Below the pieces are notes generated by a model. The model was not told the origin of the DNA. It made no database searches and saw only the letters and a list, made by a program, of their open reading frames with translations. Both the position numbers and the translations under genes were made by a program. A stretch of 64,000 nt of DNA from an uncultured Porphyromonadaceae bacterium (GTDB lineage Bacteria > Bacteroidota > Bacteroidia > Bacteroidales > UBA12481): contig CAZJNQ010000003.1 in the NCBI GenBank assembly GCA_964547475.1, forward strand, positions 22,074 to 86,073. Reading direction: 5' to 3'. Shown here in pieces: positions 13,601-42,244 of the stretch. Numbering within the stretch: the stretch's first letter is position 1; each line of letters opens with the position of its first letter.

Positions 13601-13610
13601 TTTTATTCAT
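7626..13610 (-). CDS. Alpha-2-macroglobulin family large protein (1994 aa), no CxEQ thioester motif
   Basis: Signal or anchor N-terminus. Long series of Ig-like MG-type segments and size typical of the ~1900-2000-aa Bacteroidota A2M-like proteins. The thioester position reads CSEY (9252-9263). Confidence 0.75.
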   Translation of the reverse strand: MNKILYLSVLTVIPIVAVTAVSKTFDIRQDKELVWKKIDSLEGQGLYRSALSLVDGVYRDARRDMDQENEIRSLIYRLKYTQELEEEGQEAAIELLEREPADDRLVPTALKFSMLGELYQRYYMVNRWDISQRPETKIEEEGIKKRELKEQLKLWGPGNFYRVILDCYRKSLAYPGKLSQIPVSSVKGLWTGSLKDTANSPAVYDILMRRALEFLNSSESFTVASLRPSILCSEELFMESDRFLKAIPEEELNSSNPWYQALRWYGDWLFYSNSRLTADLMRLKYVYEKSCHPHRDSLYASALEKMAAGREKTADAAILYEALAEYHLGMGQRYAINHEDTLKFKRERKKAEGWLGKAILWDETTAGRNCRNLLSDLLEPDFHAQVEAVQLPGRAFPSSIESRNIHRIYYRIFRFNALEYFSRWNEMDQSEKLTRLDLLTPQEEGSETIPDDGDRNPHRVNILLGPLAPGFYLISFSNEPDWDFRTAKVLTIPLSVSRITLITSQKNQGVRTFYLRDRQSGASLQGLLAIPWFVTYSPEKRRYEFERGQNYLSEKEGYLAIPDGAMDRVDRSPKSYRLQLIMGGDTLLTPEPFFPVYMRDEKVVQTSTLIYTDRKLYKPGDVLHFRGILMDRKGDSLMIHRQDSVELTLQDPRYQIVEKMRLPVDDLGVFSGSFILPPKGLTGSYQLITRNGSVNISMEQYRRPSFDIVLDGGHQAYLNGDVIEVTGKVTALSGEPVPGAEVLSETDLLPQYRPWRRYPVMGRRARIHSSRVVTDSNGNFTWKWKSIPESANPYGSGMPLNYQITFRVTDRNGETREEQVTVFAGKGSARLESQFPDILKIGDTLKARVRTISPDGRWLNLPVTVTLSRLKDPGRTWIDPVLPEPDRFIMTKKQWSKRVPQLPYRNEHLVKNFPVESRLLEMKVQSDSASTVTIITGKAWKEGWYRVGMSSEDPALTDTVDQYIYLRQPAGSSLAAGTAFRAELSSDHPRMGETLVITIGAKNKSYVFTELLLPHGLTEQVWSRTGRTIMEKSWKVDPSWQGGGVIHLVMLQDNRVYEKRFNLIIPWQNKNLTLKGFDDVGRVKPGDSIRLLLRLADENGNPVRASIGITVYDASLDKILPFGWAVPKWPDFTERPVCNVMTPVSVASSLLLSPESPRVDVPYTEPLQMNWWGMGFYGIDRMDRPMMKAATGRVNPVAEDAALQSVNEEEAGGAAGISKDDGAAMKSEGAAIEIRQDFRETALFNGSLVTNPDGTAELAFKVPEVFTEWKMLVTGHTSAMSTVLAEHRFRSAKDLMLKPHFPLFARIGDTLNLAARLGWYGDGTVEPVSLLTARNLLSRDLKTWKPIASRLTKGNAALMTWELTVDKPGDLRYELVSSDGKVQDGLADTIDIYPDQVELWRSLPFYLNEPGSKEIKVTGEAREAILEVVTTPAWQVLQSLPVIIGKERDCSEYWYSRLYLAGVTGLIADRMPEVSRFYLDNPPEVILDSLSHPMLRNQAIKGTDWASSPWNRVEGNEKARVLQIREWMDRDKRDKEMAFVLEKLISMRNPDGSWPWFRGMGSDWFTTQMILAGLGEMKAWKILDIMSSQRGRTIINETISALDGRMSKQFREIMKTDSLGRQKTHLDPLLIHYLYARSFYAGTIFTPEDEIAWIHFMERIPKEWMYHEPGLQAILAIACIQSGKTAFAVPIYKSLRERMKQSDEMGFYWPRKGFASSWHQWDLWMQSRMIELFAALEEGRKDLDQLRLYLVHQKRGRDWGNGMVAAWAARSLLFYGSDWTVQPAKVEIRWGKEQISPLRIKTSSTGPTGYYRMNWDQQESVPADESLKLFSQGGRPAWGTLYTRENHSLDQLSATDGPLQVRRELLCQDDQGNWGQLRKGQQVRVGQMLKIRIILTSDRELSYLELKDFLAAGFAPVRVLSGFHYKAGLQWYQAREPESVVFYLPFIPKGQQTIEYEVVAEQAGRYFGGYSTIQCLYAPEFRAWSGSVRIHAGS

Positions 13611-29154: not shown

Positions 29155-29875
29155 CCTTTCAGCAGTCGTCCTGCTACTGATCCTGTGGGAAATACTTTCG
29201 GTAACATCCGGATCGGACCAGATCCTGCCGGGACCTGACGATACTCTTGTCACCCTGGCCAGGATGGCCGGCACAACTGCTTTTTATCATTCCCTCCTGG
29301 CAACTCTGCTGAGGGGTTTGCTGGGTTTCGCCCTGGCTTTGGCCGTGGCGCTGGCCTTAGGCATCCCGGCCGGACTGAATTCGAGTTTTGAGGCGGCCAT
29401 CCGGCCTGTCATTGTCATCTTCCGTTCGACTCCGGTCATTTCCATCATCCTCCTGGCGCTGATCTGGTTCCAGGTAAACCAGGTTCCGGTTTTCATTGGT
29501 TTCCTGACCATGTTCCCCATCCTGACTACCAATATCTCACAGGGGATCCGCCATACCGAACCTTCCTACATCCAAATGGCGCGTCTGTATTCGGTGTCCG
29601 ATTCGCGTATCCTGCGTGAAATTTACCTTCCTTCCATCCTGCCCTGGCTGGTGTCGGGGATCTCCACTGCCGTGGGTTTTGGCTGGCGGTCAGTGATCAT
29701 CGGAGAGGTTTTGAGCCAGCCGCGATACGGAATCGGAGCCCTCATGCAGGATGCCCAGAGTTTCCTCCTGGTTTCCGAAGTGATCGCCTGGACGCTGGTG
29801 GCCATCCTGGTCGGATCCCTGTTCGAGTGGCTGATTCACCGTGGAGAAAAACGAATCATCCGATGGAAGCCATGA
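29120..29875 (+). CDS. ABC transporter permease (NitT/TauT family)
   Basis: About 6 TM segments. The segment ARLYSVSDSRILREIYLPSILP looks like the conserved cytoplasmic loop of binding-protein-dependent ABC permeases. Start taken at ATG 29120 (MKNLFTRNR...), which overlaps the substrate-binding-protein gene. Confidence 0.8.
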   Translation: MKNLFTRNRIISLSAVVLLLILWEILSVTSGSDQILPGPDDTLVTLARMAGTTAFYHSLLATLLRGLLGFALALAVALALGIPAGLNSSFEAAIRPVIVIFRSTPVISIILLALIWFQVNQVPVFIGFLTMFPILTTNISQGIRHTEPSYIQMARLYSVSDSRILREIYLPSILPWLVSGISTAVGFGWRSVIIGEVLSQPRYGIGALMQDAQSFLLVSEVIAWTLVAILVGSLFEWLIHRGEKRIIRWKP

Positions 29876-30543
29876 GCCTTGATCTAATAAATATTTCCAA
29901 ATCCTTTGGCGACCGGACCATTCTCGATGGCTTCAGCCTTTCGGTCCGGCCCGGTTCCGTCACCTGTCTGTTCGGACCATCGGGTTGTGGCAAAACGACT
30001 CTCTTGAACATCATGGGGGGGATCCTGGTGCCGGATTCAGGCATGGTGACCGGTTTTCCGGAAGAACAAAAGTCCTATATCTTCCAGGAAACCCGCATCC
30101 TGCCGTGGAAAACCGTCCTGGGCAATGTCCTGTTTCCGCTGGTTGACAGGATGCCCAGGCAGGAGGCTTTGGATCATGCTCGCGCGATGATCCGGATGGT
30201 CGGCCTGGAAAAAGAAGAGAAACTGTACCCCGGTCAGTTGAGCGGAGGGATGAAACAACGGGTGTCGATTGCCCGTGCATTCGCATTCCCGGGCACCCTG
30301 ATCCTGATGGATGAAGCTTTCCAGAACCTCGACAAAACCTTGAAGTACAACATACTGAATTCTTTTATGGAGATCTGGAAAAAGGACGGCCGGACCGTGG
30401 TATTTGTAACCCATGACATGGAAGAGGCCCTTTACATGGGACAACAAATCGTCCTGCTGGATGACCGACCCCTCCGGATCAGCAGGATCCTGGGCGAAGG
30501 CGACGAAAAAAACAGGGAAACTTTAATCCCCAAGCAGTTTTAA
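29863..30543 (+). CDS. ABC transporter ATP-binding protein (NitT/TauT family)
   Basis: Walker A GPSGCGKTT, signature LSGGMKQRVSIARA, Walker B LILMDEAF. An alternative ATG at 29872 forms an ATGA overlap with the permease stop. Confidence 0.88.
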   Translation: MEAMSLDLINISKSFGDRTILDGFSLSVRPGSVTCLFGPSGCGKTTLLNIMGGILVPDSGMVTGFPEEQKSYIFQETRILPWKTVLGNVLFPLVDRMPRQEALDHARAMIRMVGLEKEEKLYPGQLSGGMKQRVSIARAFAFPGTLILMDEAFQNLDKTLKYNILNSFMEIWKKDGRTVVFVTHDMEEALYMGQQIVLLDDRPLRISRILGEGDEKNRETLIPKQF

Positions 30544-33465
30544 GGAGAACATCAGCCCGTCGGTGCCCGTCGCATCGGGATTAAATCTCCGGGCATAACC
30601 GGCCGACCAGGTGGTTTTAAGATAGGAAAAAAGCACCAACTGGATATCAACCTGGGCTCCCAGGTTAAAGATGTGAGATATCTCTTCAGGCCTGTCAAAG
30701 TTCGTCATGATGTGGGTTCCGAAAAGGGAGGATTTGATGAATGTCGGATAAAGCCAGCTGGTTCCCACATCCCTCAGCCTGATGGGACGGAGGTTAATTT
30801 CTGCCATCGTTTTCACGTAATTATACGCCGGTATCTCGTCAATCTGGGCACCCGGGAAAGCCAGTGTTTTCCTGTAGTGTTCCGAAGGCTGCCAGTCGAG
30901 ATAATTGTTCCTGAATCCACCGAAATAAAAACTGGCCAGGCTCGATTCGCGGTCCCCGAAAGATTGGCCGACACTGTTCCGGATCCAGAAGCTGGTATTT
31001 TTTACGAATGGGACCATAACCCCGAAATCCTGGTTGGAAACGACCGAAGGGTAAAATTTTCCCAGTGCCAGGTAAGAGGTGGTGATCAGGTTCCAGGTAT
31101 ATCCGCATTCATCTTCCACGCCACCCAGGGTTTTTCTGAGCTTTGAAATGCCGATGGAGGCTGTCGCGGCCTGCATGCTCCTGATCGGTGAAGTCACGTT
31201 CTGGTAATCGGGTAAAACCTCCAGGTCACCATAATGGTAAACGCCGAAATCGTAGTTCCATTTGAAAGGCGACTTAAGTGTATATTGCCTTTCATGGGCG
31301 ATTCCCAGGGTATATCCCGCGCGGCTTCTCCGTGTCGGACCGAAAAGGTCATAAAAATGGGTTGGATTGTAGTTAGCCTTCAAACTCCAGCTCCAGAATT
31401 TCCATTGAAGCTGGGCATGGATCTTTTGCTTGTTGTCATCGGAGCTCCAGGGTGAAGCGGCCAGGAAAAGGTCAATGTCACTCAGGCCCAGCGGATCCCT
31501 CCAGTTCAGCCGGTAACCGACAGCCACCGTTTTCTTGAACCCGGCCAGATCGGGATAGGCGTTGGCAAGCCTCATCTGGGCGATGGGCCTGTAAGCCTCC
31601 ACTTTCAGGGAATCAGCGCTGGGGCCTGATTGGGAGGCAGGCGGCAGAGACCACTCTTCAACCACAGGATTACTTTGATGCACCAGGTTCCCCAGGTAAA
31701 TGATCGAATTGGCATCTTCCAGCACCTTGACCGGTATGATCCCCGGAGTCATCCCATCGCGATGGAACTTCAAGACCAGCAAGGAATCACTGTTCATCTG
31801 CAAGGGCATGAAAAGACCCGTTTCCGTATTGGACATCAGTTCAAAACTGTTGTCCTCCAGCCTGATCCGCCAGACATTGGATACGCCCGTATAATAAGAA
31901 GTCCCGATCAGGTACCGGTCATCCAAAGAAAATTTGAACTGGGTCAGGGTATTGTCCTCAAGCGTCAGAACGCTATGGTATCTGATCATTCCCTGGTCCA
32001 ATTCATTAATATCAAACAAGATAACCGATTGTTCACCCCGGATTCCCGACAGGGAGGCACAGAGCCGGTCACCCCGGTTGGAGACAGCCAGGTCAAAAAT
32101 GGCCTTGCCGAACGGAGCCGTGTAAATCGGGATCACACGGTCATAAGGCTCCGGGATTTTAACCAGGATGGAATAACCGTTATCGTTCCTTATTCCCCAC
32201 AGGCTTCTGTCAACCGGATTGTAAACCAGGTCGCCCGCCCGGGTCATGCGGTTGATTATTCTCTTCCTTCCGGACTTAACGTCTATTTCCACCAGGTTGC
32301 GGTATTTCTGGTTATGTTCGCTGATAAAAATCTTTTCCCGTGCCGGGTCATAGGCCAAACTGGTCGAGAAATACATCTGCGGTGAATCCAGGGTGGCTAC
32401 CTTCCGCATTTTTCCGGTCCGGACATCGATTTCGGCAATTTGCGAGACAATGCCGGGATAATTGACCGCTGCATAGATTTTACCGGTCGCGGGATTATAT
32501 CCGTAATTGGAAACATTGCCCAGCGGCTTGGTCGTAATGGCAGAGAACGGTGTAAGTGGAAACTCCTTGATCCGTCCTATGTTCTCCTGCTGAAAACGGA
32601 TTTCCCACCGGGTCCAGTCGTCCCATGCCTTCTTGAGAGGCATCTGGTATACATTCCGGAACTGGCCGGCAAAGAAGGATCTGCTGCTGTCTGTCCGCGT
32701 ATAGAATGCTTTCAGTTTGTCAATCCCGTACTGGTTGGCCAGATAGGTGACGAAACGGGTTCCGTAGAGGTAGGAGTTGGCGCCAACCTGAAAATCAATG
32801 GTCGTGCCTTCGGTCTCCAATCCGACAAGGGAATAGATGCGCTTGTTTTCATTGACGATGCTGCGGAAATACATCTCGTCATAAGTTCCCATCGTCCGGC
32901 CCAGGCCACCCGACATCCATGTTTCCATGAAGCACGCAATCCCTTCATGGTACCAGCGGGGAGTGTACCAGCGGGGAACGGTGACATAACTCCACAGCGC
33001 AGACACAGGCTTTTCCTCATTCCTCCTGACTTTGCCGTAAATGGCATTGCGGAATACTTGATCGGTCCGGTTGGCCTTATCGGCCATGACGACATGGGTG
33101 AGTTCGTGGTTGAAGAGCCACTGAAACCGTTCGTTTGACGGAATGATGCTGAAGGCAAATCCATAGGGTTCGATCCCGATCTGCACCTGGCTGAAAGGCA
33201 TGACCAGTGCCCCGGCATGACCCATGTCCTCGAAATCATTCAGGATAACGTACAGGGTTGTATCCTCGTAATTCCAGAGATTATGGTGAAAAGCCATGGC
33301 GTTGGCATAGGTCTGGGAAACATGAGGCAAGAGGTATGAATAACGTTTCCCGAAAAAGATCAGGTCGAGATTGTCAATCTTAACATGGTTGATCCTTTGG
33401 GCGAACAGCCCTGCACCTCCTGACCATAACAGACCGGATAGCAGAACAGGCAGCAGGCACCTCAT
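30523..33465 (-). CDS. Secreted 980-aa protein: N-terminal HExxH (HELTH...HEG) metallopeptidase-like domain, central beta-propeller-like repeats, beta-rich C-terminal region
   Basis: Signal peptide MRCLLPVLLSGLLWSGGAGLFAQ; FNHELTHVV plus downstream WYHEGIACFMETW. Repetitive strand-turn segments in the middle (...YNPATGKIYAAV..., ...YDPAREKIFISE..., ...YNPVDRSLWGIR...). No family name recognised with confidence. Confidence 0.6.
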   Translation of the reverse strand: MRCLLPVLLSGLLWSGGAGLFAQRINHVKIDNLDLIFFGKRYSYLLPHVSQTYANAMAFHHNLWNYEDTTLYVILNDFEDMGHAGALVMPFSQVQIGIEPYGFAFSIIPSNERFQWLFNHELTHVVMADKANRTDQVFRNAIYGKVRRNEEKPVSALWSYVTVPRWYTPRWYHEGIACFMETWMSGGLGRTMGTYDEMYFRSIVNENKRIYSLVGLETEGTTIDFQVGANSYLYGTRFVTYLANQYGIDKLKAFYTRTDSSRSFFAGQFRNVYQMPLKKAWDDWTRWEIRFQQENIGRIKEFPLTPFSAITTKPLGNVSNYGYNPATGKIYAAVNYPGIVSQIAEIDVRTGKMRKVATLDSPQMYFSTSLAYDPAREKIFISEHNQKYRNLVEIDVKSGRKRIINRMTRAGDLVYNPVDRSLWGIRNDNGYSILVKIPEPYDRVIPIYTAPFGKAIFDLAVSNRGDRLCASLSGIRGEQSVILFDINELDQGMIRYHSVLTLEDNTLTQFKFSLDDRYLIGTSYYTGVSNVWRIRLEDNSFELMSNTETGLFMPLQMNSDSLLVLKFHRDGMTPGIIPVKVLEDANSIIYLGNLVHQSNPVVEEWSLPPASQSGPSADSLKVEAYRPIAQMRLANAYPDLAGFKKTVAVGYRLNWRDPLGLSDIDLFLAASPWSSDDNKQKIHAQLQWKFWSWSLKANYNPTHFYDLFGPTRRSRAGYTLGIAHERQYTLKSPFKWNYDFGVYHYGDLEVLPDYQNVTSPIRSMQAATASIGISKLRKTLGGVEDECGYTWNLITTSYLALGKFYPSVVSNQDFGVMVPFVKNTSFWIRNSVGQSFGDRESSLASFYFGGFRNNYLDWQPSEHYRKTLAFPGAQIDEIPAYNYVKTMAEINLRPIRLRDVGTSWLYPTFIKSSLFGTHIMTNFDRPEEISHIFNLGAQVDIQLVLFSYLKTTWSAGYARRFNPDATGTDGLMFSLKLLGD

Positions 33466-33479
33466 CCGGAAGAAATGTT

Positions 33480-34709
33480 TTATCTGATGGTACCCAGTTT
33501 GTCGGCGTCGAGGATGGCCATACCCATCTTATCTGCGTCCATGAATATACCCAGCTTGTCTGCATCCAGGACATAGCCCATCTTTTCCGCGTCACGAATA
33601 ATGCCCATCTTTTCGGCGTCCAGGATAGTGCCCATCTTTTCGGCATCCACTATTATGGTTCCCATTTTTTCGGCATCCAGATACGTGCCCATCTTTTCAG
33701 CGTCCGCTACCAAAAACCCTATTAATTCCGCATCGAAATAGACCTCTCCCAGTTTATCCGCATCGGTGATGATGAAAGGCCCGAGTTTTTCAGTGTCAAA
33801 AATCGCCAGTTGTTCAATATTCCCTATTAGACCGAGCTGTTGTGCATCCAGATAATAATCACCCATTTTCTCCGCATCGGCGGCCATTCCCATTTTTTCA
33901 GCATCCATGGCACCCAGCTTTTCAGCATCAACGATCCGGAGCTTTTCAGATTCGCTCCAGGCGCCCATTTGTTCAACGTCATGTTGTACCTGCTTCATTG
34001 TAGCCGCATGGTCATACCAGCGGAGTTTGCGGTAATCCGTCAGCAGGGTCTTTTTGCCAAGGAATTTTTGCATGACCTTGTCTCCTGTGACCAGTGAAGC
34101 GTTAGCCATATTCACCGCCAGGATGTCATGAGCCTGTTTGAGCCCCTCATAATCACCTGATTGATTGGAAGACAGGAAGGATTCCGCCTGGTTGATGAAA
34201 TCCACGACCACCCGGCAGCGATAGTTCTTTTGTGCGATCACGTTGTTGACCTGGTTAAGGGAGTTCCGGATCAGGGCCGGATCCGTGTTTTTAGGATCCT
34301 GCACGGCAGCCAGGGCAGCCAGGAAATAACCTCTCGTGGATGCCAGGTAGGTCCCATAACTGTTTAATTCCTTGATCTGTCTGGTCCCAAATGCCTTGAA
34401 AGCTTCGGCTCCATTCGCTTCAGTCACGGCCTTGCTGATGTTCCCCGCTACCTGGATCGCATCCAGGTAATGGTACGTGATGTAATTACGGAGTACCCTT
34501 AGACCAGCAGTGTCTGACACCAGGTCATTCTGAAGCCGGATATCGGCTTCGGAAACCTTGATGTTGCGGTATTTGTCCACCTTGGTTATGGTTCCGGCCA
34601 GTTCTTCATCCTCCACTTTCGGATAATCGACCGTAATGCCCACCAGGAAACCAATGATCAGCCCGGCTACAACACCGGCTACGATCATAAGGATGCTCGA
34701 CTTTTTCAT
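33480..34709 (-). CDS. Signal-anchored protein A (409 aa) with a conserved ~210-aa domain and a C-terminal DAEK[LM]G repeat array
   Basis: MKKSSILMIVAGVVAGLIIGFLVG N-terminal anchor. Residues 1-250 align without gaps to the neighbouring paralog. C-terminus holds ~16 repeats. 14-nt gap to the downstream 980-aa gene. Confidence 0.85.
   Translation of the reverse strand: MKKSSILMIVAGVVAGLIIGFLVGITVDYPKVEDEELAGTITKVDKYRNIKVSEADIRLQNDLVSDTAGLRVLRNYITYHYLDAIQVAGNISKAVTEANGAEAFKAFGTRQIKELNSYGTYLASTRGYFLAALAAVQDPKNTDPALIRNSLNQVNNVIAQKNYRCRVVVDFINQAESFLSSNQSGDYEGLKQAHDILAVNMANASLVTGDKVMQKFLGKKTLLTDYRKLRWYDHAATMKQVQHDVEQMGAWSESEKLRIVDAEKLGAMDAEKMGMAADAEKMGDYYLDAQQLGLIGNIEQLAIFDTEKLGPFIITDADKLGEVYFDAELIGFLVADAEKMGTYLDAEKMGTIIVDAEKMGTILDAEKMGIIRDAEKMGYVLDADKLGIFMDADKMGMAILDADKLGTIR
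33483..33983 (-). repeat. Coding tandem repeat, ~16 units of 9-11 codons (hh-D-A-E/D-K-L/M-G-x-h)
   Basis: ...VDAEKLGAMDAEKMGMAADAEKMG...DAEKMGTYLDAEKMGTIIVDAEKMGTILDAEKMGIIRDAEKMGYVLDADKLGIFMDADKMGMAILDADKLGTIR. The DNA shows a recurring cccatcttttcggcrtcc. Confidence 0.9.
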
Positions 34710-34835
34710 ACAATGAGTTTTAGGTTGATACCAATAATCAGGTCAATAAAGATAACATGTGCTCAAAACAATTGCAAACATCCAGCTTAAGTATAGCTAA
34801 AATAACCAAGATTTAATGAGGGGCCGGTCCTGATT

Positions 34836-35924
34836 CTATTCCACGCCCAGTTTTTCGACATCCAGTAAAGTCGCCAACCTTTCAGCGTCAAAAAAACCAA
34901 ACTTTTCGGCATCCAGTAAAGTCGCCAACCTTTCAGCGTCAAAAAAACCAAGTTTTTCAGCATCGAAGAAGATATCCAGTTTGTTTGCATCGTAAAACCG
35001 CCCACCCAGCTTTTCAGCGTCCGCAATGATAGTGCCCACCCTATCCGCATCCAGGAACGCTATAGCCATTTTCTCAGCATCACCGAAAAAAACCCCTCTT
35101 TTGTCGCTATCCCGGACAATGGCATAACCCAGCTTTTCCGCATCGATAAACTGATATTTCTCTACATCATCCATTGCACCGAGTTTCTCAGCATCCTGGC
35201 GCACCTGTTTCACCGTCTTACCCTGATCGTACCAGGCCAATTTCCGGTAATCGGTCAGCAAAGCCTTGTTACCCAGCAATTTCTGCAAGACTTTATCACC
35301 TGTCTTGACAGAGGCGTTAACCAAATCCAAGGCGAGGATGTCATGCGCCTCCCTGAGTCCCGGAAACTCACCCGGTTTGACTGATACCATGAAGGATCCG
35401 GTCTTGTCGATAAAATTGAGGACCGTGCGGATGCGATAGTTCTTTTGTGCAATGATGTTATTCGCAAGGTTCAGTGAATTCCGGATCATTTCAGCATTCG
35501 TGTTTTCGGGGTCGCGGATGGCAGCCAGGGCAGCCAGATAATAGAGGCGCGTAGAGTTCAGGTACAGGCCGAAATTATTCATGCCGTCAATCTGGTTTTC
35601 CGCTGAAGACCTGAAAGCTTCTGCAGAATTGGCTTCCGCAACTGCCTTCTCTATGTCCCCTGCCAACTTGATGGCATCCAGGTAGTGAAATGTGAGATAG
35701 CGCCTTAGCATGCCTAAGCTCGCTGTATCCGAAACCAGGTTATTCTGGAGCCTGATTTCAGCTTCTGTCACCTTGGTGTTCCGGTATTTTTTCACCTTGG
35801 TTATGGTTCCTGCCACCGAATCATCCGGGACAACGGATTCTTTCACCACGATGCCGACCAGGAAGCCGATGATCATGCCTGCGACTGTACCGCCTGCGAT
35901 TATAAGAGCAAGTGATTTTTTCAT
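34836..35924 (-). CDS. Signal-anchored protein B (362 aa), paralog of protein A, with C-terminal DAEKLG/DAERLA repeat array
   Basis: MKKSLALIIAGGTVAGMIIGFLVG anchor from the ATG at 35924. 40 of the first 60 residues are identical to protein A by manual count. ~13 C-terminal repeats. Confidence 0.85.
   Translation of the reverse strand: MKKSLALIIAGGTVAGMIIGFLVGIVVKESVVPDDSVAGTITKVKKYRNTKVTEAEIRLQNNLVSDTASLGMLRRYLTFHYLDAIKLAGDIEKAVAEANSAEAFRSSAENQIDGMNNFGLYLNSTRLYYLAALAAIRDPENTNAEMIRNSLNLANNIIAQKNYRIRTVLNFIDKTGSFMVSVKPGEFPGLREAHDILALDLVNASVKTGDKVLQKLLGNKALLTDYRKLAWYDQGKTVKQVRQDAEKLGAMDDVEKYQFIDAEKLGYAIVRDSDKRGVFFGDAEKMAIAFLDADRVGTIIADAEKLGGRFYDANKLDIFFDAEKLGFFDAERLATLLDAEKFGFFDAERLATLLDVEKLGVE
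34839..35198 (-). repeat. Coding tandem repeat, ~13 units of 8-11 codons (DAEKLG / DAERLA variants)
   Basis: QDAEKLGAMDDVEKYQFIDAEKLGYAIVRDSDKRGVFFGDAEKMAIAFLDADRVGTIIADAEKLGGRFYDANKLDIFFDAEKLGFFDAERLATLLDAEKFGFFDAERLATLLDVEKLGVE. Confidence 0.9.
34861..34962. repeat. Near-perfect 51-bp direct duplication inside the protein B repeat array
   Basis: tccagtaaagtcgccaacctttcagcgtcaaaaaaaccaa occurs identically at 34861-34900 and 34912-34951. The flanking 11 bp differ at a few positions. Confidence 0.92.
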
Positions 35925-35957
35925 TGATGAAGGTTTAAGCAATTGCCTTAATATAAA

Positions 35958-35965
35958 CAAAAATA
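35958..35965 (-). promoter_or_regulatory. Candidate -7 box TATTTTTG (minus strand) for the protein B / protein A / 980-aa operon
   Basis: Reverse complement of caaaaata at 35958-35965, 34 nt upstream of the ATG at 35924. Possible -33 TTGC about 22 nt further upstream. Confidence 0.35.
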
Positions 35966-36083
35966 TGACCGTTCAGCAGCTTGATGGCAACAATTCTGTT
36001 TGCGGAACCCTTGTATCATCCCGCACCCCGCCCAATCCTTATTAAAAGAAATTACCGGTTCTTGGTGTTTTAGAGAGATTATC

Positions 36084-36091
36084 TAACTTTA
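36084..36091 (+). promoter_or_regulatory. Candidate -7 box TAACTTTA (one mismatch to TAnnTTTG) for the kinase / STAS / PrsW-like operon
   Basis: 38 nt upstream of the ATG at 36129. TTG at 36062-36064 sits at plausible -33 spacing. Confidence 0.3.
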
Positions 36092-36128
36092 AAGTCACTG
36101 ATCTGACCTTGTTGAACAGAGGATTTAC

Positions 36129-36563
36129 ATGGGGAGCAACCAAAAATATAAAAGACTGGACATCAGGAATGACATCCAGGAGCTCAACCGGGTCGTTCCC
36201 TTCCTGGATCAGTTGCAGGAAGAATGGGATCTGCCTGTCAGCGTAATCCCGGCAATAAACCTGGCGTTGGAAGAAGCCCTCTCAAACATTATTTTTTATG
36301 GCATTGATCCCGGGATTGAAGAAGAGATCAGCATCGAGTTCAAAGCAGAAGGAAATTGCCTGAACATAATATTATCAGACACCGGAAAGGCTTTTGACCC
36401 GACGCAAAACTCGGAACCGGATCTGGATCTTCCGGCCGAGGTAAGACCGATAGGCGGCCTGGGTATTTTCCTGATCCGCAAAATGATGGATGAAGTCAGT
36501 TACGAGCGGATCAACGGCACCAACCGCCTTGTGATGGTCAAACATTGGGATATCAACAAATGA
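36129..36563 (+). CDS. RsbW/SpoIIAB-like anti-sigma regulatory factor (HATPase_c Ser/Thr kinase)
   Basis: N-box LEEALSNIIFYG, then DTGKAFDP, then G-box PIGGLGIFLIRKMMDEV. 144 aa. Confidence 0.85.
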   Translation: MGSNQKYKRLDIRNDIQELNRVVPFLDQLQEEWDLPVSVIPAINLALEEALSNIIFYGIDPGIEEEISIEFKAEGNCLNIILSDTGKAFDPTQNSEPDLDLPAEVRPIGGLGIFLIRKMMDEVSYERINGTNRLVMVKHWDINK

Positions 36564-36579
36564 CAAATAACCTTAACAC

Positions 36580-36909
36580 ATGAAAATCACAACACAAACC
36601 AAAGGGAACGACATTTATGTTCAGGTTGAGGGACGTATAGACACGACCAACTCAATTGATTTTGAAAATACAGTCAGTCAGGCATTGACGAACGAAGTGA
36701 AGCAAATTTATCTCGACTGCAGCGAGCTGAACTATATCAGCAGCTCCGGGCTGCGCGTATTGCTTACTTTTCTTAAAAAAATGATGGCTGCCGGGGGAAC
36801 CCTCAAACTCTATTCGCTTCAACCGGCCATAAAAGAGATATTCGACATTTCCGGATTTTCCACCATCTTCCCGATCTTTCCTGATCTGGTGGCAGCACAG
36901 GAAAATTAA
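36580..36909 (+). CDS. STAS-domain anti-sigma-factor antagonist (SpoIIAA/RsbV-like)
   Basis: 109 aa. ...LDCSELNYISSSGLRVLL... carries the conserved phosphorylatable Ser context, followed by IFDISGF. Confidence 0.85.
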   Translation: MKITTQTKGNDIYVQVEGRIDTTNSIDFENTVSQALTNEVKQIYLDCSELNYISSSGLRVLLTFLKKMMAAGGTLKLYSLQPAIKEIFDISGFSTIFPIFPDLVAAQEN

Positions 36910-36967
36910 ACCCATTGATCCGTATGCCGTAAGCGGCCCGGAAACGCAGAATAAGAAAGACAACCGA

Positions 36968-37957
36968 ATGGAAATTGTTGTCAGCATATTTCCGGTTTTT
37001 CTTTTCACCGCTTTTCTCTTTCTGCTCGACAGTTTCAAGCTGGTCATCAAAAAATACCTCGCCTTCGCTCTCCTTTGGGGTATCGCCAGTGCCGTGCTGG
37101 CTTATTTCTGCAACAATTTCATCCTTGATGTGGCGCGGATGAAACCGGTGACTTACTCCCGGTACTTGGCTCCGGCTATCGAGGAAGCCATCAAACTCTT
37201 GTTTATCTTTCTGATATTATCCAGAAAACGGATCGGCTTCATGACGGATGCCGCCATCTACGGATTTGCCGTCGGAGCCGGATTTGCCCTTGCCGAGAAC
37301 ATTTTTTTCCTGAAAACTGCAGGTAATTCAAACCTCCTGGTCTGGATCATCCGCGGCTTGGGAACGGCAACCATGCACGGAACCTGCACTTCGCTGGCTT
37401 CGATCATCCTGATTGGCGGTAAAAGCCGGAACACCTCGTTTCTTCTTTCCATCACCCTGGCCGTTGCCACCGCCTACGTGATCCATTCCGCTTTCAACCA
37501 TTTCTATGTCAACCCGATATGGCAGACCATCGCTATCATCATTCTTGCCCCTATCCTGTTTATCCTGATCTTTAAGCTGACCGAAACGCAGCTCCAGAAA
37601 TGGCTTGAAATTGAATTCTCGAGCGAAATAGAATTACTCAAGATGATCAACCAGGGTCGGTTTTTATCCACCCGGTCGGGTCAATTCCTGGCCTCCCTGC
37701 AATCACGTTTCGTCGGGGAAACCATCCTGGATATGTATTGTTTTATCAGCCTCTACCTGGAATTGTCAGTCAAGGCCAAAAGAAATGTCATGCTCAGGGA
37801 AAATGGCTTTCCGGTGATGGCTGAAAAAGACACGGGCGATAAGATCCTGGAGCTGAAACAACTCAGAAAGAGGATCGGGAAGGTCGGGGAGTTGACGTTG
37901 GCGCCCCTCATCCGGATGAACTACCGCAGCCTGTGGAAACTGACTTATCTGGAATAA
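36968..37957 (+). CDS. PrsW-family intramembrane protease with ~120-aa C-terminal soluble extension
   Basis: Polytopic. PAIEEAIKLLF (EExxK), GFALAENIFF, TATMHGTCT and IHSAFNH match the PrsW signature as I recall it. Residues ~205-329 are non-membrane. Confidence 0.7.
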   Translation: MEIVVSIFPVFLFTAFLFLLDSFKLVIKKYLAFALLWGIASAVLAYFCNNFILDVARMKPVTYSRYLAPAIEEAIKLLFIFLILSRKRIGFMTDAAIYGFAVGAGFALAENIFFLKTAGNSNLLVWIIRGLGTATMHGTCTSLASIILIGGKSRNTSFLLSITLAVATAYVIHSAFNHFYVNPIWQTIAIIILAPILFILIFKLTETQLQKWLEIEFSSEIELLKMINQGRFLSTRSGQFLASLQSRFVGETILDMYCFISLYLELSVKAKRNVMLRENGFPVMAEKDTGDKILELKQLRKRIGKVGELTLAPLIRMNYRSLWKLTYLE

Positions 37958-37984: not shown

Positions 37985-38608
37985 TTACTCCCGGTGGTAT
38001 TTCACGTAAAAAGCCACTTTCTCCAGGGAAGTGATCATGTCATATTCCTCAAGAAAGATATGCGGCGGCATATTGAGCGGAACGGTTGTAAAATTCATGA
38101 TCCCGCGTATGCCCGTGTCTGACAGCCGGTCAGCGATCTTCTTGGCATTCTCAGGAGGTACTGTAAGAATGGCAATGGATATCTGAAGGTCCCTGATGAG
38201 TTGTTCCAGCGAATCCATGGAGTAGCATTTGACACCGGCAATCACATGGCCAATCTTATCCGGATCCACATCAAAAGTCGCTGTGATTTTGAGCTTCGAA
38301 CGTTTACCCCTGAAATAGCCCGTAACAGCGCGACCGAGGTTACCGGCCCCGATCACGGCCACGTTCAGGCCTTCATCCGTATCAATCAAATTCCCTATTG
38401 CTGCAATCAGTTCACTGATATCATAACCTTTGCGCTGCATGCTCGTGAAACCCATGAGCATCATGTCCCTGCGAACCTGAACCGCCGTAATATGGTTCAA
38501 AGCCGCCAGCTCGTGGGAATAAATATGGGTTTTCCCACCGGTCAGGCAAACCAGCAGAATCCGCCTGTAAGCACTGAGTCTTTCGACCGTTTTCTCAGGT
38601 AAGTTCAT
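37985..38608 (-). CDS. rex: Redox-sensing transcriptional repressor Rex
   Basis: N-terminal TVERLSAYRRIL winged helix, Rossmann VIGAGNLGRAV, ~207 aa. Confidence 0.9.
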   Translation of the reverse strand: MNLPEKTVERLSAYRRILLVCLTGGKTHIYSHELAALNHITAVQVRRDMMLMGFTSMQRKGYDISELIAAIGNLIDTDEGLNVAVIGAGNLGRAVTGYFRGKRSKLKITATFDVDPDKIGHVIAGVKCYSMDSLEQLIRDLQISIAILTVPPENAKKIADRLSDTGIRGIMNFTTVPLNMPPHIFLEEYDMITSLEKVAFYVKYHRE

Positions 38609-38712
38609 GGTTTTCAGGAATTAATTAATCAAAAATAATAAATCAGCCCAATACAGGCAACAACAACCTGAAGGCCTTGTCCTGCAAATGGCTTATACCA
38701 TTAATATACGCA

Positions 38713-38748
38713 AAAGGGAGGCTTTCCAATGGATGAGTCTCCCTTTTT
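38713..38748 (-). terminator. Stem-loop AAAGGGAGGCT / AGTCTCCCTTT (one G-U pair) flanked by A/T runs; probable intrinsic terminator after hydA
   Basis: Inverted repeat read directly, 23 nt downstream of the hydA stop on the minus strand and followed there by TTTTG. It lies between hydA and rex. Confidence 0.55.
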
Positions 38749-38770
38749 ACAGACGGTGGTCCCGAAAGGT

Positions 38771-40564
38771 CTAATAGCGTTTTCTCGGAACGTAATGGGT
38801 ATGCAGCAACGCGTGGGACTTATGGCTATTGGGAGTTCCCAGGAACTCCTCATAGATCAGCTTGACCTCAGGATTTTCATGCGATTTCCGTATAGGCAAG
38901 CCTTCATCTTCCTGATAAATGGCCGCTGCACGTTTTTCGCGGATCTCCTGGCTGGTGGGAATCGGTTGGCCGCCACCGCCCAGGCAACCGCCGGGGCAGG
39001 CCATGACCTCGATGAAATGATAATGGGCGGTGCCATCCTTGACGGCCTGCATCAGCCGGCGCGCGTTAACCAGGCTATGAGCCACGGCACAGGATACTTC
39101 TACGCCTTCAAGGAATTTCCAGTCGGGCAGGCAGCCTTCGATTTTGATTTTGGCTTCCCTGACTCCTTCCATTCCCCTTACTGGGGTTATTTTCAGGTCA
39201 GTGAAGGGCACTTCCCGTCCGGTGACCACTTCATAAACGGTTCTTAAGGCGGCTTCCATCACACCACCGGTGACTCCGAAGATCACCGCTGCTCCGGTCG
39301 AATCGCCCATGATGCTGTCATAAGGGCTTTCTTCAAGGTTCTGGAAATGAATTCCAGCCTGCTTGATCATCATCCCCAGTTCACGGGTGGTCAACACATA
39401 ATCCACATCCTTGTATCCGCTCGACCGCATTTCCGGACGATTGGCTTCATATTTCTTTGCCGTGCACGGCATGATGGACACCACGCAGATATCCTGGGCC
39501 TTTAATCCCTTCTTCTGGGCATAATAGGTTTTAGCCAGTGCACCGAACATTTGCTGGGGCGATTTGCAAGTCGAAACATTGGGTAAAAATTCCGGGAAAG
39601 TGTGTTCGATGAACTTGATCCAGCCCGGCGAACAGGAAGTAGTCATGGGCAGGGCGACGGTCGTGTCTTTCTCCACCAGGGCTCTCTTCAGGCGTGTAAG
39701 AAGTTCGGTCCCCTCTTCCAGAATGGTGAGGTCGGCTGTAAAATCTGTGTCAAGCACGGAATCAAAACCCAAGCGCCTCAGGGCCGTGACCATTTTACCG
39801 GTCAGCCTTTCACCCGGATCGTAACCGAGTTCTTCTCCGATCGCCACCCTGACGGCAGGGGCGGTCTGAACCACGACATGCACGTTCGGATTGTTGATCG
39901 CGTCCCAGACCTCTTCAACATAGGTTTTTTCAACCAGGGCTCCCACCGGGCAACGGTTGACGCATTGGCCGCAGTTGGTGCAGACTACTTCAACCAAAGG
40001 CCGGTTAAGGAAGGTGGATATCTTCATTCGATCGCCCTTGTAAGCGACATCCAGGGCGGAAACACCCTGTAACTCGGCACAGGTCCTGACGCAGCGCTGG
40101 CACCGGATGCATTTGCTGTCGTCCTTTATGATTGAAGGTGACAGATCATCGATTCCCCTCTTTTTGGTGCCCAACAGATCGATGAACACGTGATCCCCGA
40201 CCCTGTACTCATAAGCCAGGCTCTGAAGCTCGCAATTGCCATTCTTGTAACATTTCGTGCAATCTGCATTGTGCTCAGACAAAAGAAGTTCAATGATGGT
40301 TTTCCGGGCTGTCCGGACCTTGGCGCTATTGGTGTGGATCTGCATCCCTTCAGAAACCGGTGTGGCACAGGCCGCGATCAGTGTTTTACCTGCGATCTGT
40401 TCCACGACACAAACCCGGCAATTGCCGGCCACGCAGAGATCCTGATGGTAGCAAAGGGTCGGAATCCTGAAATCAAGTTTCTTGGCAGCATCCAGGATCG
40501 TTGTTCCTTCGGGAACAGAAACCGGTATATCGTTTATTGTCAGATTGACCAGATATTTCTTCAT
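38771..40564 (-). CDS. hydA: [FeFe]-hydrogenase catalytic subunit (2Fe-2S + His-ligated 4Fe-4S + 2x4Fe-4S + H-cluster domain)
   Basis: H-cluster motifs TSCSPGW (L1 variant), MPCTAKKYE (L2) and EVMACPGGCLGGGGQP (L3). N-terminal CYHQDLCVAGNCRVCVVE. Start at ATG 40564 (MKKYLVNLTINDI). Confidence 0.9.
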   Translation of the reverse strand: MKKYLVNLTINDIPVSVPEGTTILDAAKKLDFRIPTLCYHQDLCVAGNCRVCVVEQIAGKTLIAACATPVSEGMQIHTNSAKVRTARKTIIELLLSEHNADCTKCYKNGNCELQSLAYEYRVGDHVFIDLLGTKKRGIDDLSPSIIKDDSKCIRCQRCVRTCAELQGVSALDVAYKGDRMKISTFLNRPLVEVVCTNCGQCVNRCPVGALVEKTYVEEVWDAINNPNVHVVVQTAPAVRVAIGEELGYDPGERLTGKMVTALRRLGFDSVLDTDFTADLTILEEGTELLTRLKRALVEKDTTVALPMTTSCSPGWIKFIEHTFPEFLPNVSTCKSPQQMFGALAKTYYAQKKGLKAQDICVVSIMPCTAKKYEANRPEMRSSGYKDVDYVLTTRELGMMIKQAGIHFQNLEESPYDSIMGDSTGAAVIFGVTGGVMEAALRTVYEVVTGREVPFTDLKITPVRGMEGVREAKIKIEGCLPDWKFLEGVEVSCAVAHSLVNARRLMQAVKDGTAHYHFIEVMACPGGCLGGGGQPIPTSQEIREKRAAAIYQEDEGLPIRKSHENPEVKLIYEEFLGTPNSHKSHALLHTHYVPRKRY

Positions 40565-40581
40565 GATATCCGCTGTTTTGC

Positions 40582-41748
40582 TTAGTAAATGATTTCCTCT
40601 TTGAAATTCGTAACGATGGAGATGAACGGATTGGCAACTGACTGGCCCAGGCCGCATTTAGCGGCGATCTTCATGGTTTTGGCCAGTTTTTTCAGGTCCT
40701 CGAGGTACACAGGAGGCCTTTCACCCCGCTTGACCGCTTCGATTCCTTTCAGCAACTGCTGGCATCCCACCCGGCAAGGCGTGCATTGTCCGCAGGATTC
40801 TTCAGTGAAGAACTCCAGGTAATCGTGCAGGACATTGTACATCGACCGTGAGCTGTTGAACAGCATCATGGATCCGCCCGTAGGAATGCCTTCGTACCCG
40901 ATGATCATGTCCTTGAAGAGTTTTCTCGGGACACATCCGCCGGACGCTCCTCCCACCTGGACAGCCTTCGTGTCCCCATCACCGAATTCATCGACAAATT
41001 GCTGAACAGTCATGCCGAGTTCCAGTTCATGTATCCCGGCTTTCGGGGTGTCGCCCGAAACTGAAAAGACTTTGGATCCCCGGGAGTCCTTGGTTCCTAA
41101 TTCCTTGAATTTCTCCACGCCGATCCGGCTGATCATGAAAGCGTACACCAGCGTTTCGACGTTGTTGATCGCGGTAGGCTTGCCCAGATACCCCGCAACC
41201 GTCGGATACGGAGGCTTGTTCCTGGGTTCACCCCTCTTGCCTTCCATGGATTCGAACAATGCACTCTCTTCCCCGCAGATGTAGGCTCCGCTTCCCGAAC
41301 GCACCTGGATAAAGAAATCCAGGCCAATCTTCTTCAGCCCCTCATTGAATTTTTTCAGTTTCTCGGTCAGTTTGGGTAGGAGAAAATTATACTCACCCCT
41401 GAGGTAAATAAAACCTTCGCGAGCCCCGATCGTGTAACCGCAAATTGCCAATCCGGCAAAAACCTTCTCGGGAACCCGATCCAGGATCTCCCGATCTTTG
41501 AACGTCCCGGGCTCGCCTTCATCAGCGTTGCAAATAACGTATTTTTCCACACTGTCTTCATTCCGGGTGAATTTCCATTTCAGCCCGGTCGGGAAACCGG
41601 CACCACCCCTTCCCTTGAGCCCCGAATCAATCATTTCCAAAATGATGTCATCCGGATTTTTCTTGATGGTTTTCTCAACAACCAGAAGGGGATCAATCCC
41701 TTCCATGGTAAAAATGATATCGACCCTTTTCGGTCTGTTGCTTTCCAT
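40582..41748 (-). CDS. hydB: NuoF-like flavoprotein subunit of the hydrogenase (NADH/FMN-binding, one 4Fe-4S); core-only form
   Basis: GRGGAGFPTGLKWKF, NADEGEPGTFKDR, CGQCTPCRVG...CGLGQ. 388 aa from the ATG at 41748, with no extra N- or C-terminal Cys-rich domains. Confidence 0.88.
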   Translation of the reverse strand: MESNRPKRVDIIFTMEGIDPLLVVEKTIKKNPDDIILEMIDSGLKGRGGAGFPTGLKWKFTRNEDSVEKYVICNADEGEPGTFKDREILDRVPEKVFAGLAICGYTIGAREGFIYLRGEYNFLLPKLTEKLKKFNEGLKKIGLDFFIQVRSGSGAYICGEESALFESMEGKRGEPRNKPPYPTVAGYLGKPTAINNVETLVYAFMISRIGVEKFKELGTKDSRGSKVFSVSGDTPKAGIHELELGMTVQQFVDEFGDGDTKAVQVGGASGGCVPRKLFKDMIIGYEGIPTGGSMMLFNSSRSMYNVLHDYLEFFTEESCGQCTPCRVGCQQLLKGIEAVKRGERPPVYLEDLKKLAKTMKIAAKCGLGQSVANPFISIVTNFKEEIIY

Positions 41749-41773
41749 TGTTTTCAGCTTATAGATTCGACAG

Positions 41774-42244
41774 TCAATCCAATTCCACCTTATACCTGTT
41801 GATGATCTCCACGGCCTTTTGAGGCGTGAGTTCAGGAAAAACCTCATCATTGACCAGCATTACCGGTCCTTTGTGGCACCAGCCCAGGCAGTTCGCCGTC
41901 AGCAAGGTGAATTGCCTGTCGAGAGTGGTTTCGCCGATCTTGATTTTCAGGGCTCCTTCGATCGCTTTGATGATCTCATCTTTCCCGGCCATATGGCAGG
42001 AAATGGTCTTGCATACGCGTATAACGTACTTGCCCCTGGGAACCGTGTCGAGAAAGGTATAGAAACTTGCAGTCCCGAACACTTCAGCAGCGGATAGATC
42101 CAGTACCTTGGCAATGGCAACCAGATCCTGGTCATCGAGATAATTTTTTGCCTTGACAACCGCTTGCAATATCGGCATCAAAGCTTTTCTCTCTATACCG
42201 TGAATCTTGGTTGCATCCTTAATAATTTGTTGAACATCAGCCAT
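41774..42244 (-). CDS. hydC: NuoE-like thioredoxin-fold [2Fe-2S] subunit of the hydrogenase
   Basis: CKTISCHMAG ... ANCLGWCHKGP cluster ligands; 156 aa. Confidence 0.88.
   Translation of the reverse strand: MADVQQIIKDATKIHGIERKALMPILQAVVKAKNYLDDQDLVAIAKVLDLSAAEVFGTASFYTFLDTVPRGKYVIRVCKTISCHMAGKDEIIKAIEGALKIKIGETTLDRQFTLLTANCLGWCHKGPVMLVNDEVFPELTPQKAVEIINRYKVELD

Follow-up and report, generated by a model that had tools for sequence, protein, structure and literature searches.

The window analysed here is a 64,000-nucleotide stretch of DNA from an uncultured Porphyromonadaceae bacterium (GenBank assembly GCA_964547475.1, contig CAZJNQ010000003.1, positions 22,074 to 86,073), and six of its genes, between positions 30523 and 37957, form two divergent arms encoding a 980-residue protein (P980), two repeat proteins (A and B), an RsbW-like kinase, a STAS protein and a PrsW-family protease. 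We conclude, with moderate confidence, that the six genes constitute one functional unit, a sigma-less derivative of a widespread and undescribed regulated-proteolysis system that spans the envelope and whose mechanism we infer below. The cluster is present in hundreds of Bacteroidota-type genomes. In its complete form the system would comprise a PrsW protease with a conserved cytoplasmic C-terminal domain, an extracytoplasmic function (ECF) sigma factor together with its RsiW-like single-pass anti-sigma factor, between one and four single-pass A-type proteins, P980, and a PP2C/kinase/STAS module. The genes of the window are as follows.

30523–33465, minus strand: P980, 980 aa, with signal peptide, zincin-like domain, TolB-like propeller and 16-strand barrel (open reading frame [ORF] and AlphaFold2 [AF2] model)
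33480–34709, minus strand: protein A, 409 aa (ORF)
34836–35924, minus strand: protein B, 362 aa from the ATG at 35924 (ORF)
35925–36128: divergent spacer of 204 bp between B and the kinase gene
36129–36563, plus strand: RsbW-like serine kinase or anti-sigma-type HATPase_c_2 protein, 144 aa (Pfam, 4.7e-22)
36580–36909, plus strand: STAS anti-sigma-antagonist-type protein, 109 aa (Pfam STAS, 3.7e-21)
36968–37957, plus strand: PrsW-family intramembrane protease, 329 aa (Pfam PrsW-protease, 1.4e-21)

All six ORFs, the divergent spacer, an HExxH motif in P980 and the DAEKLG repeats of A and B were reported in a preliminary description of this DNA and are confirmed in the sequence, as are the intergenic gaps of 126 bp (B to A), 14 bp (A to P980), 16 bp (kinase to STAS) and 58 bp (STAS to PrsW).

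Conservation of the gene neighborhood

Two sets of loci, cited below by L numbers, were compared with the window. A P980-anchored scan, limited to a single genome for each species, turned up 219 carriers, and the best 80 loci were surveyed with phmmer; a PrsW-anchored scan of metagenome contigs supplied 80 loci with GC contents of 0.31–0.70, which carry no taxonomy. PrsW, A-like and P980 genes are found together on hundreds of genome and metagenome contigs, with differing flanks and in at least three gene orders. The functional link between the two arms had been proposed from adjacency, to be abandoned if these families failed to co-occur outside this genome; it survives because they do co-occur elsewhere.

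Of the 67 loci with sufficient flanking sequence, 59 have an A-like gene as the immediate upstream neighbor of P980, with one to four tandem A copies per locus. A PrsW homolog precedes P980 in the same orientation in 48 of 56 loci and has the opposite orientation in two others. Among the 80 PrsW-anchored metagenome loci, 65 contain P980, and 13 of the remaining 15 are too short for a decision. Forty-six of the loci in this set share a second arrangement, [PP2C]-kinase-STAS-sigma-antisigma-X-P980-PrsW, referred to here as order 2. Several order-2 loci show a 4-nt overlap of the P980 ORF with that of PrsW, and PrsW is probably often translationally coupled to P980 in this arrangement.

The closest contigs (L001–L003) are little informative because their entire neighborhood is syntenic with the window. 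In L004–L009 the flanks are unrelated, yet PrsW, one or more A-like genes and a gene for a protein of about 980 residues are found together, usually on one strand. Rearranged loci also keep the genes together: the PrsW arm is inverted in the window, L001–L003 and L010, and an A gene is located downstream of P980 in L066 and L075. Two complete clusters stand in tandem in one genome (L016:4199–18928 and L082:4147–18291), one cluster with sigma and anti-sigma genes and two copies of A, the other with the order STAS(-kinase)-PrsW-A-P980.

A sigma/anti-sigma pair and its fusions to A-type ectodomains

Between PrsW and A, 30–32 of the 56 loci of the window's clade carry a sigma factor gene of the ECF type (Sigma70_r2/r4_2) and a gene for a single-pass protein of about 250 residues. 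This partner has no Pfam family; the best match of its profile to a solved structure is the cytoplasmic domain of Bacillus subtilis RsiW (PDB 5wuq_C, E 4.4e-7), and it has a beta-rich ectodomain of its own. Most order-2 loci also encode such a sigma/anti-sigma pair. RsiW is the textbook substrate of PrsW.

The order-2 gene between anti-sigma and P980, denoted X, also encodes a single-pass protein, with a membrane-proximal motif GT[IV]x..[KR]Y[RQ]xxQ[IM]xxxDVxL followed by long arrays of 8–12-residue repeats of many sequence types. A profile of the A-family N-terminus finds X proteins (E 2e-7 to 5e-4) and a profile of the X N-terminus finds window-type A proteins (E 1e-14 to 3e-7); by these profile matches, X proteins are relatives of A. 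The X profile further matches the motif at residues ~100–200 behind an anti-sigma N-terminal domain in proteins of six loci. Each of these apparent fusions contains an anti-sigma N-domain (E 1e-9 to 2e-5), a transmembrane segment, the A/X motif (50–82 bits) and repeats, which are tandem units of 8–9 residues (SDAFRQVMA, LDGKTIAALQT and others). The motif is likewise internal in L161 and L167, whose proteins are cut at the contig end, which brings the loci of this kind to at least eight. The six anti-sigma/A-type fusions are located at:

L110:3396–4883
L144:1643–2788
L146:3840–4961
L147:3575–4837
L148:2587–3915
L158:2730–3851

These fusions indicate that an A-type ectodomain can form the extracytoplasmic half of an RsiW-like anti-sigma factor.

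The repeat proteins A and B

Protein B is a paralog of A (56% identity), and both have an N-terminal anchor and a C-terminal array of repeats, with 16 D-A-E-K-[LM]-G-like units in A and nine in B.

A residues 3–26, minus strand: N-terminal transmembrane anchor (AF2 and sequence)
34512–34595, minus strand: membrane-proximal motif GTItKVDKYRN...DIrLQN of A, residues 39–66
33483–33980, minus strand: acidic DAEKLG nonapeptide repeats of A, residues 244–409
34839–35195, minus strand: repeats of B, nine units, residues 244–362

Both proteins have a KK-transmembrane-acidic flank arrangement, which predicts an N-in/C-out topology, with about two cytoplasmic residues each. It had been suggested that the DAEKLG proteins are the sensors or substrates of the protease. 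The anti-sigma/A-motif fusions lend support to this, whereas any carriage of the signal into the cytoplasm by A and B themselves does not hold, as about two cytoplasmic residues would leave them unable to do so.

The conserved parts of the A family are the anchor and the membrane-proximal motif. A word-index search found A homologs in 27 clusters, every one from Bacteroidota metagenome-assembled genomes or metagenomes, and an exhaustive profile search extended the family to 387 representatives at 50% identity. In the AF2 model of A, a helical bundle at residues ~50–250 has a predicted local distance difference test score (pLDDT) of ~90 and the repeat tail scores below 30. The bundle has no fold match in the PDB (best Foldseek E 0.48), and Pfam scans of A and B gave nothing beyond a low-complexity match to DUF1118, with no two-partner secretion (TPS) domain. 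This DUF1118 match and one to ArdA were set aside as artefacts of the low-complexity repeats.

The tandem DNA periods underlying the repeats of A and B are 27/54 nt and 51 nt. The 51-nt unit in B (34852–34964) is present in 2.2 copies with 93% identity, and such near-identical copies suggest a recent repeat expansion, which fits the one to four gene copies and the variable tails of the family.

P980, a predicted zincin-propeller-barrel protein

The AF2 model of P980 (pLDDT 82.9; predicted template modelling score 0.82) is laid out as a signal peptide, a helical zincin-like domain, a propeller, a short helical linker and a 16-strand barrel.

32566–33393, minus strand: helical zincin-like protease domain, residues ~25–300 (AF2, invariant columns)
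33094–33108, minus strand: HELTH, residues 120–124 (sequence)
31726–32553, minus strand: beta-propeller, residues ~305–580 (AF2 strands, Foldseek)
30538–31572, minus strand: beta-barrel of 16 strands, residues ~632–976 (DSSP count on the AF2 model)

Residues H120, E121 and H124 are unchanged in 56 sequences and in 40 further ones at 34–71% identity, and E174, E181, T182 and W183 are invariant in the zincin domain of the same sequences; E174 and E181 are candidates for the third zinc ligand. The Pfam model Peptidase_MA_2 gives a sub-threshold match to P980 (13.7–16.8 bits, cut-off 32.4), the best E value for a family member being 1.2e-5, and such matches recur in six of 14 members. For the propeller, the top Foldseek matches are to TolB (2w8b, E 1.3e-9, target-normalized TM-score 0.52), with tricorn and S9 peptidases also among them. 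The barrel strands mostly have pLDDT values of 80–95, and a long loop between strands 11 and 12 bears the motif F[YF]FGGF[RG]NN[YW], which, like the HExxH, E174 and E181, is invariant down to 34% identity. Omp85_2 matches residues 802–892 of the window's P980 at 18.3 bits (cut-off 23.1), and is likewise sub-threshold in six of 14 members. The Pfam scan and the AF2 model reveal no POTRA domain, no Pfam family matches P980 above threshold, and its profile has no sequence match in the PDB.

P980 had been described as a secreted protein with an HExxH motif and a propeller. Both features are upheld, and simple secretion is not, since the roughly 350 C-terminal residues model as an outer-membrane barrel; on the basis of the barrel predicted at residues 632–976, P980 would be an outer-membrane protein. 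The family is large, with at least 3417 clusters (90% identity) at E < 1e-3, and the top 120 relatives are all about 980 aa in length and at least 60% identical.

Several loci (L013, L014, L017, L035, L037, L056, L060, L061 and L071) have a gene for a 284-residue, family-less protein directly downstream of P980; this gene occurs in 13 loci altogether. A 1007-aa ABCG-like ABC transporter also follows P980 in these Prolixibacteraceae-type loci.

The PrsW-family protease

The protease matches Pfam PF13367 over residues 29–198 with 77.3 bits (cut-off 23.5) and fails the NCBIfam equivalog NF033739 for B. subtilis PrsW (29.6 against 225 bits). Its assignment as a PrsW-type intramembrane protease is supported by Pfam and by the catalytic motifs, and does not extend to equivalence with PrsW as defined by NCBIfam.

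PrsW residues 1–200, plus strand: protease part, with E72-E73-x-x-K, E110, H137 and H173-x3-N177
37568–37954, plus strand: conserved C-terminal cytoplasmic domain of about 130 aa, residues 201–329

Residues E72, E73, K76, E110, H137, H173 and N177, which correspond to the family motifs EExx[KR], FxxxE, a conserved His and HxxxN/D, are invariant in one alignment; the motifs are kept in 61 orthologs and present in 53–59 of 61 metagenome homologs. The C-terminal domain has no match in Pfam or the PDB, and full-length PrsW has no PDB match. A hit of the domain profile to NusG (E 0.03) was treated as noise, and a relationship to the anti-sigma family was rejected at an hhalign probability of 0.1%. 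A 2012 survey (PMC3482391) described PrsW domains fused to signaling domains and toxins and does not mention the present system. A polymorphic-toxin reading drawn from that survey was discarded, as there is no toxin or immunity domain and the C-terminal domain is conserved and not polymorphic.

The kinase, STAS and PP2C genes

The NCBIfam RsbW and SpoIIAB models match the window kinase far below their cut-offs. The STAS protein exceeds the cut-off of TIGR00377 (82.8 bits against 53.45), and its residues 52–58 read Y-I-S-S-S-G-L; the ISSSGL segment is a candidate for containing the phospho-serine, with Ser55 in the position that we take to align with Ser58 of SpoIIAA.

Kinase genes, small STAS genes or both are found within 8 kb in 25 of the 56 loci of the window's clade. 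STAS is directly 5′ of PrsW in 11 loci and directly 3′ of P980 in four, and STAS and kinase genes flank the entire cluster in L038 and L041. About 20 genome loci carry, either after P980 or before PrsW, a row of genes for an NMT1-like binding protein, a dCache-PP2C protein, a kinase and a STAS protein, and a dCache-SpoIIE (PP2C) protein is also encoded beside kinase-STAS in many metagenome loci. Of the 22 order-2 loci that are informative on this point, 21 have a STAS gene, a kinase gene or both next to the sigma gene. Judged by this gene context, the partner-switch genes are an integral part of the cluster.

Promoters and other regulatory DNA

A bipartite promoter-like motif, aCCAACTTTT-N13-14-TGTAtTT (CCAACTTTT-N-TGTAtTT), lies 5′ of the sigma gene in 29 loci and 5′ of the first A gene in 26 long-form loci of the window's clade. 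It precedes sigma in order-2 loci too, and the GC content of the loci ranges from 0.34 to 0.63. The motif resembles an ECF promoter that is autoregulated and from which A and P980 are transcribed as well. Examples from the loci concerned (L011–L089 and L107–L169) are located at:

L044:4800–4835
L044:6230–6300
L123:~2090–2130

The CCAACTTTT string also occurs 20 times within P980 genes (L010–L089), where it encodes an invariant Y-P-T-F (residues 906–909), and these coding matches are to be left out of counts of the promoter motif.

In the window, TAnnTTTG-like −7 boxes had been noted on both sides of the divergent spacer. The B side has the only perfect match to this Bacteroidota-type box, TATTTTTG at 35958–35965 on the minus strand, 34 nt upstream of the B ATG; on the kinase side there is only TAACTTTA (36084–36091), which matches TAnnTTTG in seven of eight positions. 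The motif is not enriched in the window as a whole (22 found against 27 expected). As mechanically listed, the B ORF begins at a TTG at 35960, and the 204-bp figure for the spacer already presumes a start at 35924. The ATG at 35924 (MKKS..., 362 aa) is most likely the true start, since the −7 box falls inside the TTG extension and the N-terminus of A parallels this one in reading MKKS. A sequence upstream of the kinase gene, CTAACTTTA, was rejected as an ECF promoter; it is a near-match without the downstream TGTAtTT element.

Scans of the region for sigma-70-type promoters and for terminators gave counts not above chance. One terminator-like site is at the end of P980.

30513–30532, minus strand: terminator-like hairpin and T-run at the P980 stop codon (consensus scan; such sites are not above chance regionally)

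GC-rich hairpins (GATCCCGGCTCGC...GAGCCGGGATC) are present between the repeat-protein gene and P980 in L118, L123, L144, L146, L148 and L158. In order 2 they sit about 60–120 nt upstream of the P980 start, and they may act as attenuators or terminators and in this way adjust how much repeat protein is made relative to P980.

Other genes of the window

The 3′ end of P980 shares 21 nt (30523–30543) with a convergent ABC-transporter ATPase gene (29827–30543). On the other side, the minus strand at 37985–42244 encodes the Rex redox repressor and then a NuoE/NuoF/Fe-hydrogenase-like trio. In L001–L003 these genes keep their place beside the cluster; in remoter loci they do not, and they are therefore probably unrelated to the system. 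A bacterial alpha-2-macroglobulin homolog of 1994 aa with MG2, A2M and bMG10 domains is encoded at 7626–13610, minus strand.

A model for the system and its alternatives

In the model that we favor, the A-type proteins would sit in the inner membrane by their anchors and extend a flexible repeat tail across the periplasm, where the propeller and zincin domain of P980 would engage or trim it. Engagement or trimming of the tail would license PrsW to make a site-1 cut in the membrane-proximal segment, as in RsiW, and the cut would release sigma in those cases in which an anti-sigma factor is fused to the A-type ectodomain or present alongside it. The released sigma factor could then drive its own gene and the A-P980 genes through the CCAACTTTT-N-TGTAtTT promoter, and the kinase and STAS proteins (with PP2C where present) would provide a second, cytoplasmic control, acting on the sigma factor or on the C-terminal domain of PrsW. 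The window would be a derived variant in which the sigma/anti-sigma pair and the ECF-type promoter have been lost and the kinase-STAS-PrsW arm has been inverted, with B-A-P980 presumably read from a housekeeping-type promoter that has TATTTTTG as its −7 box before B. The A and B proteins of the window are most likely still substrates or regulators of PrsW and P980. A more specific proposal, which we consider improbable, is that the conserved membrane-proximal GT[IV]x..[KR]Y[RQ]...DVxL is the recognition site of PrsW, that P980, as a new Omp85-like zincin/propeller protein, gates the cleavage from the outer membrane by reading the state of the disordered tail that spans the periplasm, and that the STAS/RsbW/PP2C module docks on the PrsW C-terminal domain from the cytoplasmic side. 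If true, this would be the first system with dedicated and identifiable partners for the long-unknown activation step of PrsW.

Several observations weigh against the favored model. The 64-kb window has no gene for a sigma factor, anti-sigma factor or PP2C protein and no additional copies of the cluster genes, such that the downstream output would either be encoded elsewhere or be reduced to turnover of A and B, and the ECF-type CCAACTTTT motif was not found anywhere in the window, the divergent spacer included. In the nearest relatives L002, L003 and L010 the kinase is lost and STAS retained. PrsW cuts RsiW ~60 residues beyond the membrane and not immediately adjacent to it, and P980 could place its zincin domain and propeller on either side of the outer membrane. 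The model of the A repeat tail is uninformative at its low pLDDT, and strict DAEKLG units are present in just 44 of 101 A-like ORFs, the remaining tails using other repeats, so conservation does not reside in the repeat sequence as such. Finally, both locus sets are the 80 best matches of their scans and are biased to closer relatives.

Other explanations were considered. A pathway of secretion or release would make P980 an Omp85/TpsB-like transporter, with PrsW clipping the anchors of A and B and freeing these proteins into the periplasm, the unfolded tails being exported or processed via P980 and then displayed or shed, and the sigma factor and partner switch regulating expression only. The 16-strand barrel with its L6-like conserved loop and sub-threshold Omp85_2 matches agrees with this, as do the cargo-like, fast-evolving repeat proteins encoded in one to four copies directly beside the barrel gene; the hairpins between X and P980 in order 2 would permit an excess of cargo over transporter, and PrsW domains have been proposed to be releasing peptidases of exported proteins (PMC3482391). 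We nevertheless think such a pathway improbable. P980 lacks POTRA domains, a protease and propeller in their place is not a known transporter layout, and A has neither a TPS-type secretion domain nor a Pfam match; moreover, the conservation of P980 far exceeds what is typical of transporters dedicated to a variable cargo, and the fusion of an anti-sigma factor to an A-type ectodomain suits signaling better than cargo.

It is also doubtful, in our judgment, that PrsW acts solely on the RsiW-like anti-sigma factor and that the A-type proteins and P980 are merely targets of the sigma factor, for example in envelope repair, or as a periplasmic spacer and a quality-control protease, with no direct proteolysis between PrsW and A or between P980 and A, and with their adjacency in the window simply inherited. 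Such an arrangement would account for the motif common to the upstream regions of sigma and A, taken as a sign that the targets of the sigma factor in long-form clusters include A and P980, for the separate beta-rich ectodomain of the ~250-aa anti-sigma factor, and for the rewiring of the window operon to a housekeeping-type promoter. However, at least 16 loci that have no sigma gene still have PrsW next to A and P980, often putatively co-transcribed with gaps of 19–90 bp, PrsW appears to be translationally coupled to P980 in order 2, and in the fusions the presumed substrate of PrsW itself bears the A-type ectodomain. As the earlier reading rested on adjacency in one window, chance proximity of unrelated genes in this genome was a further explanation; co-occurrence in about 120 independent loci, with GC contents of 31–70%, several gene orders and gene fusions, refutes it, and we give it next to no weight.

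Relationship to known systems

Full-text literature searches found no paper that connects PrsW with STAS proteins, partner switching, ECF systems of Bacteroidota or a protein like P980, and PrsW, STAS and RsbW go unmentioned in the ECF reclassification paper. The system would be a variant of sigma-W/RsiW/PrsW-type proteolysis of an anti-sigma factor that draws on two unannotated families and on an unprecedented combination of controls. Research on sigma-W has yet to settle how a PrsW-type site-1 protease senses envelope damage. The question becomes testable here, where gene linkage joins PrsW to candidate substrates and to an outer-membrane protease and a STAS switch as its two candidate regulators. 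The cluster also exposes two sizeable unannotated families, P980 with a new zincin-propeller-barrel architecture and the A-type repeat proteins, and reveals a group of ECF sigma factors putatively under combined anti-sigma, PrsW and partner-switch control, with a recognizable promoter motif.

A close parallel is the sigma-W/RsiW/PrsW/RasP pathway of B. subtilis, which shares a PrsW-family protease with the same conserved motifs and, in most related clusters, an ECF sigma factor with a single-pass anti-sigma factor that matches RsiW. Trimming peptidases are needed after the PrsW cut in the RsiW pathway, and P980 as a second extracytoplasmic protease parallels these. The present system differs in being Gram-negative with a dedicated outer-membrane component, and in that its PrsW has an extra cytoplasmic domain of ~130 aa, fails the equivalog cut-off and is genetically linked to its presumed substrate. 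Its cluster contains A-type repeat proteins and partner-switch genes, and the window version is without sigma and anti-sigma genes. The FecA-FecR-FecI and sigma-E RseA/DegS/RseP systems are similar in encoding together an outer-membrane protein, an ECF sigma factor and a single-pass anti-sigma factor of the inner membrane, and in signaling that is presumed to be proteolytic. The present system lacks a TonB-dependent transducer, a FecR domain and a DegS/PDZ protease; its outer-membrane partner is itself a predicted metalloprotease with a propeller, and its site-1 candidate is a PrsW-type intramembrane enzyme.

The kinase and STAS genes resemble those of RsbU/RsbV/RsbW and SpoIIE/SpoIIAA/SpoIIAB, with a HATPase_c_2 kinase and a STAS protein encoded adjacently and, in ~20 relatives, a dCache-PP2C gene upstream. 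In the present cluster the module has no sigma-B- or sigma-F-type target and is embedded in an ECF sigma/PrsW cluster; the window has no phosphatase gene, and the nearest relatives have STAS and no kinase. With the Omp85 proteins (BamA, TamA, TpsB, PlpD), P980 shares 16 predicted strands, a motif in the loop between strands 11 and 12 and weak recurrent Omp85_2 matches. It differs in having no POTRA domains, in scoring below the Pfam threshold, in its N-terminal zincin and TolB-like propeller, in a loop motif of GGF[RG]NN[YW] rather than the [VI]RG[FY] of Omp85 L6, and in a C-terminus of LLGD/N that is not aromatic. The structural matches of the P980 propeller are to TolB, the best, and to tricorn and prolyl oligopeptidase/S9 enzymes, although the sequence identity is just 13–15%, the TolB N-terminal domain is missing and P980 joins a zincin and a barrel to its propeller. 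The ligands of TolB include intrinsically disordered peptide epitopes, which is a precedent for a propeller that binds repeat tails.

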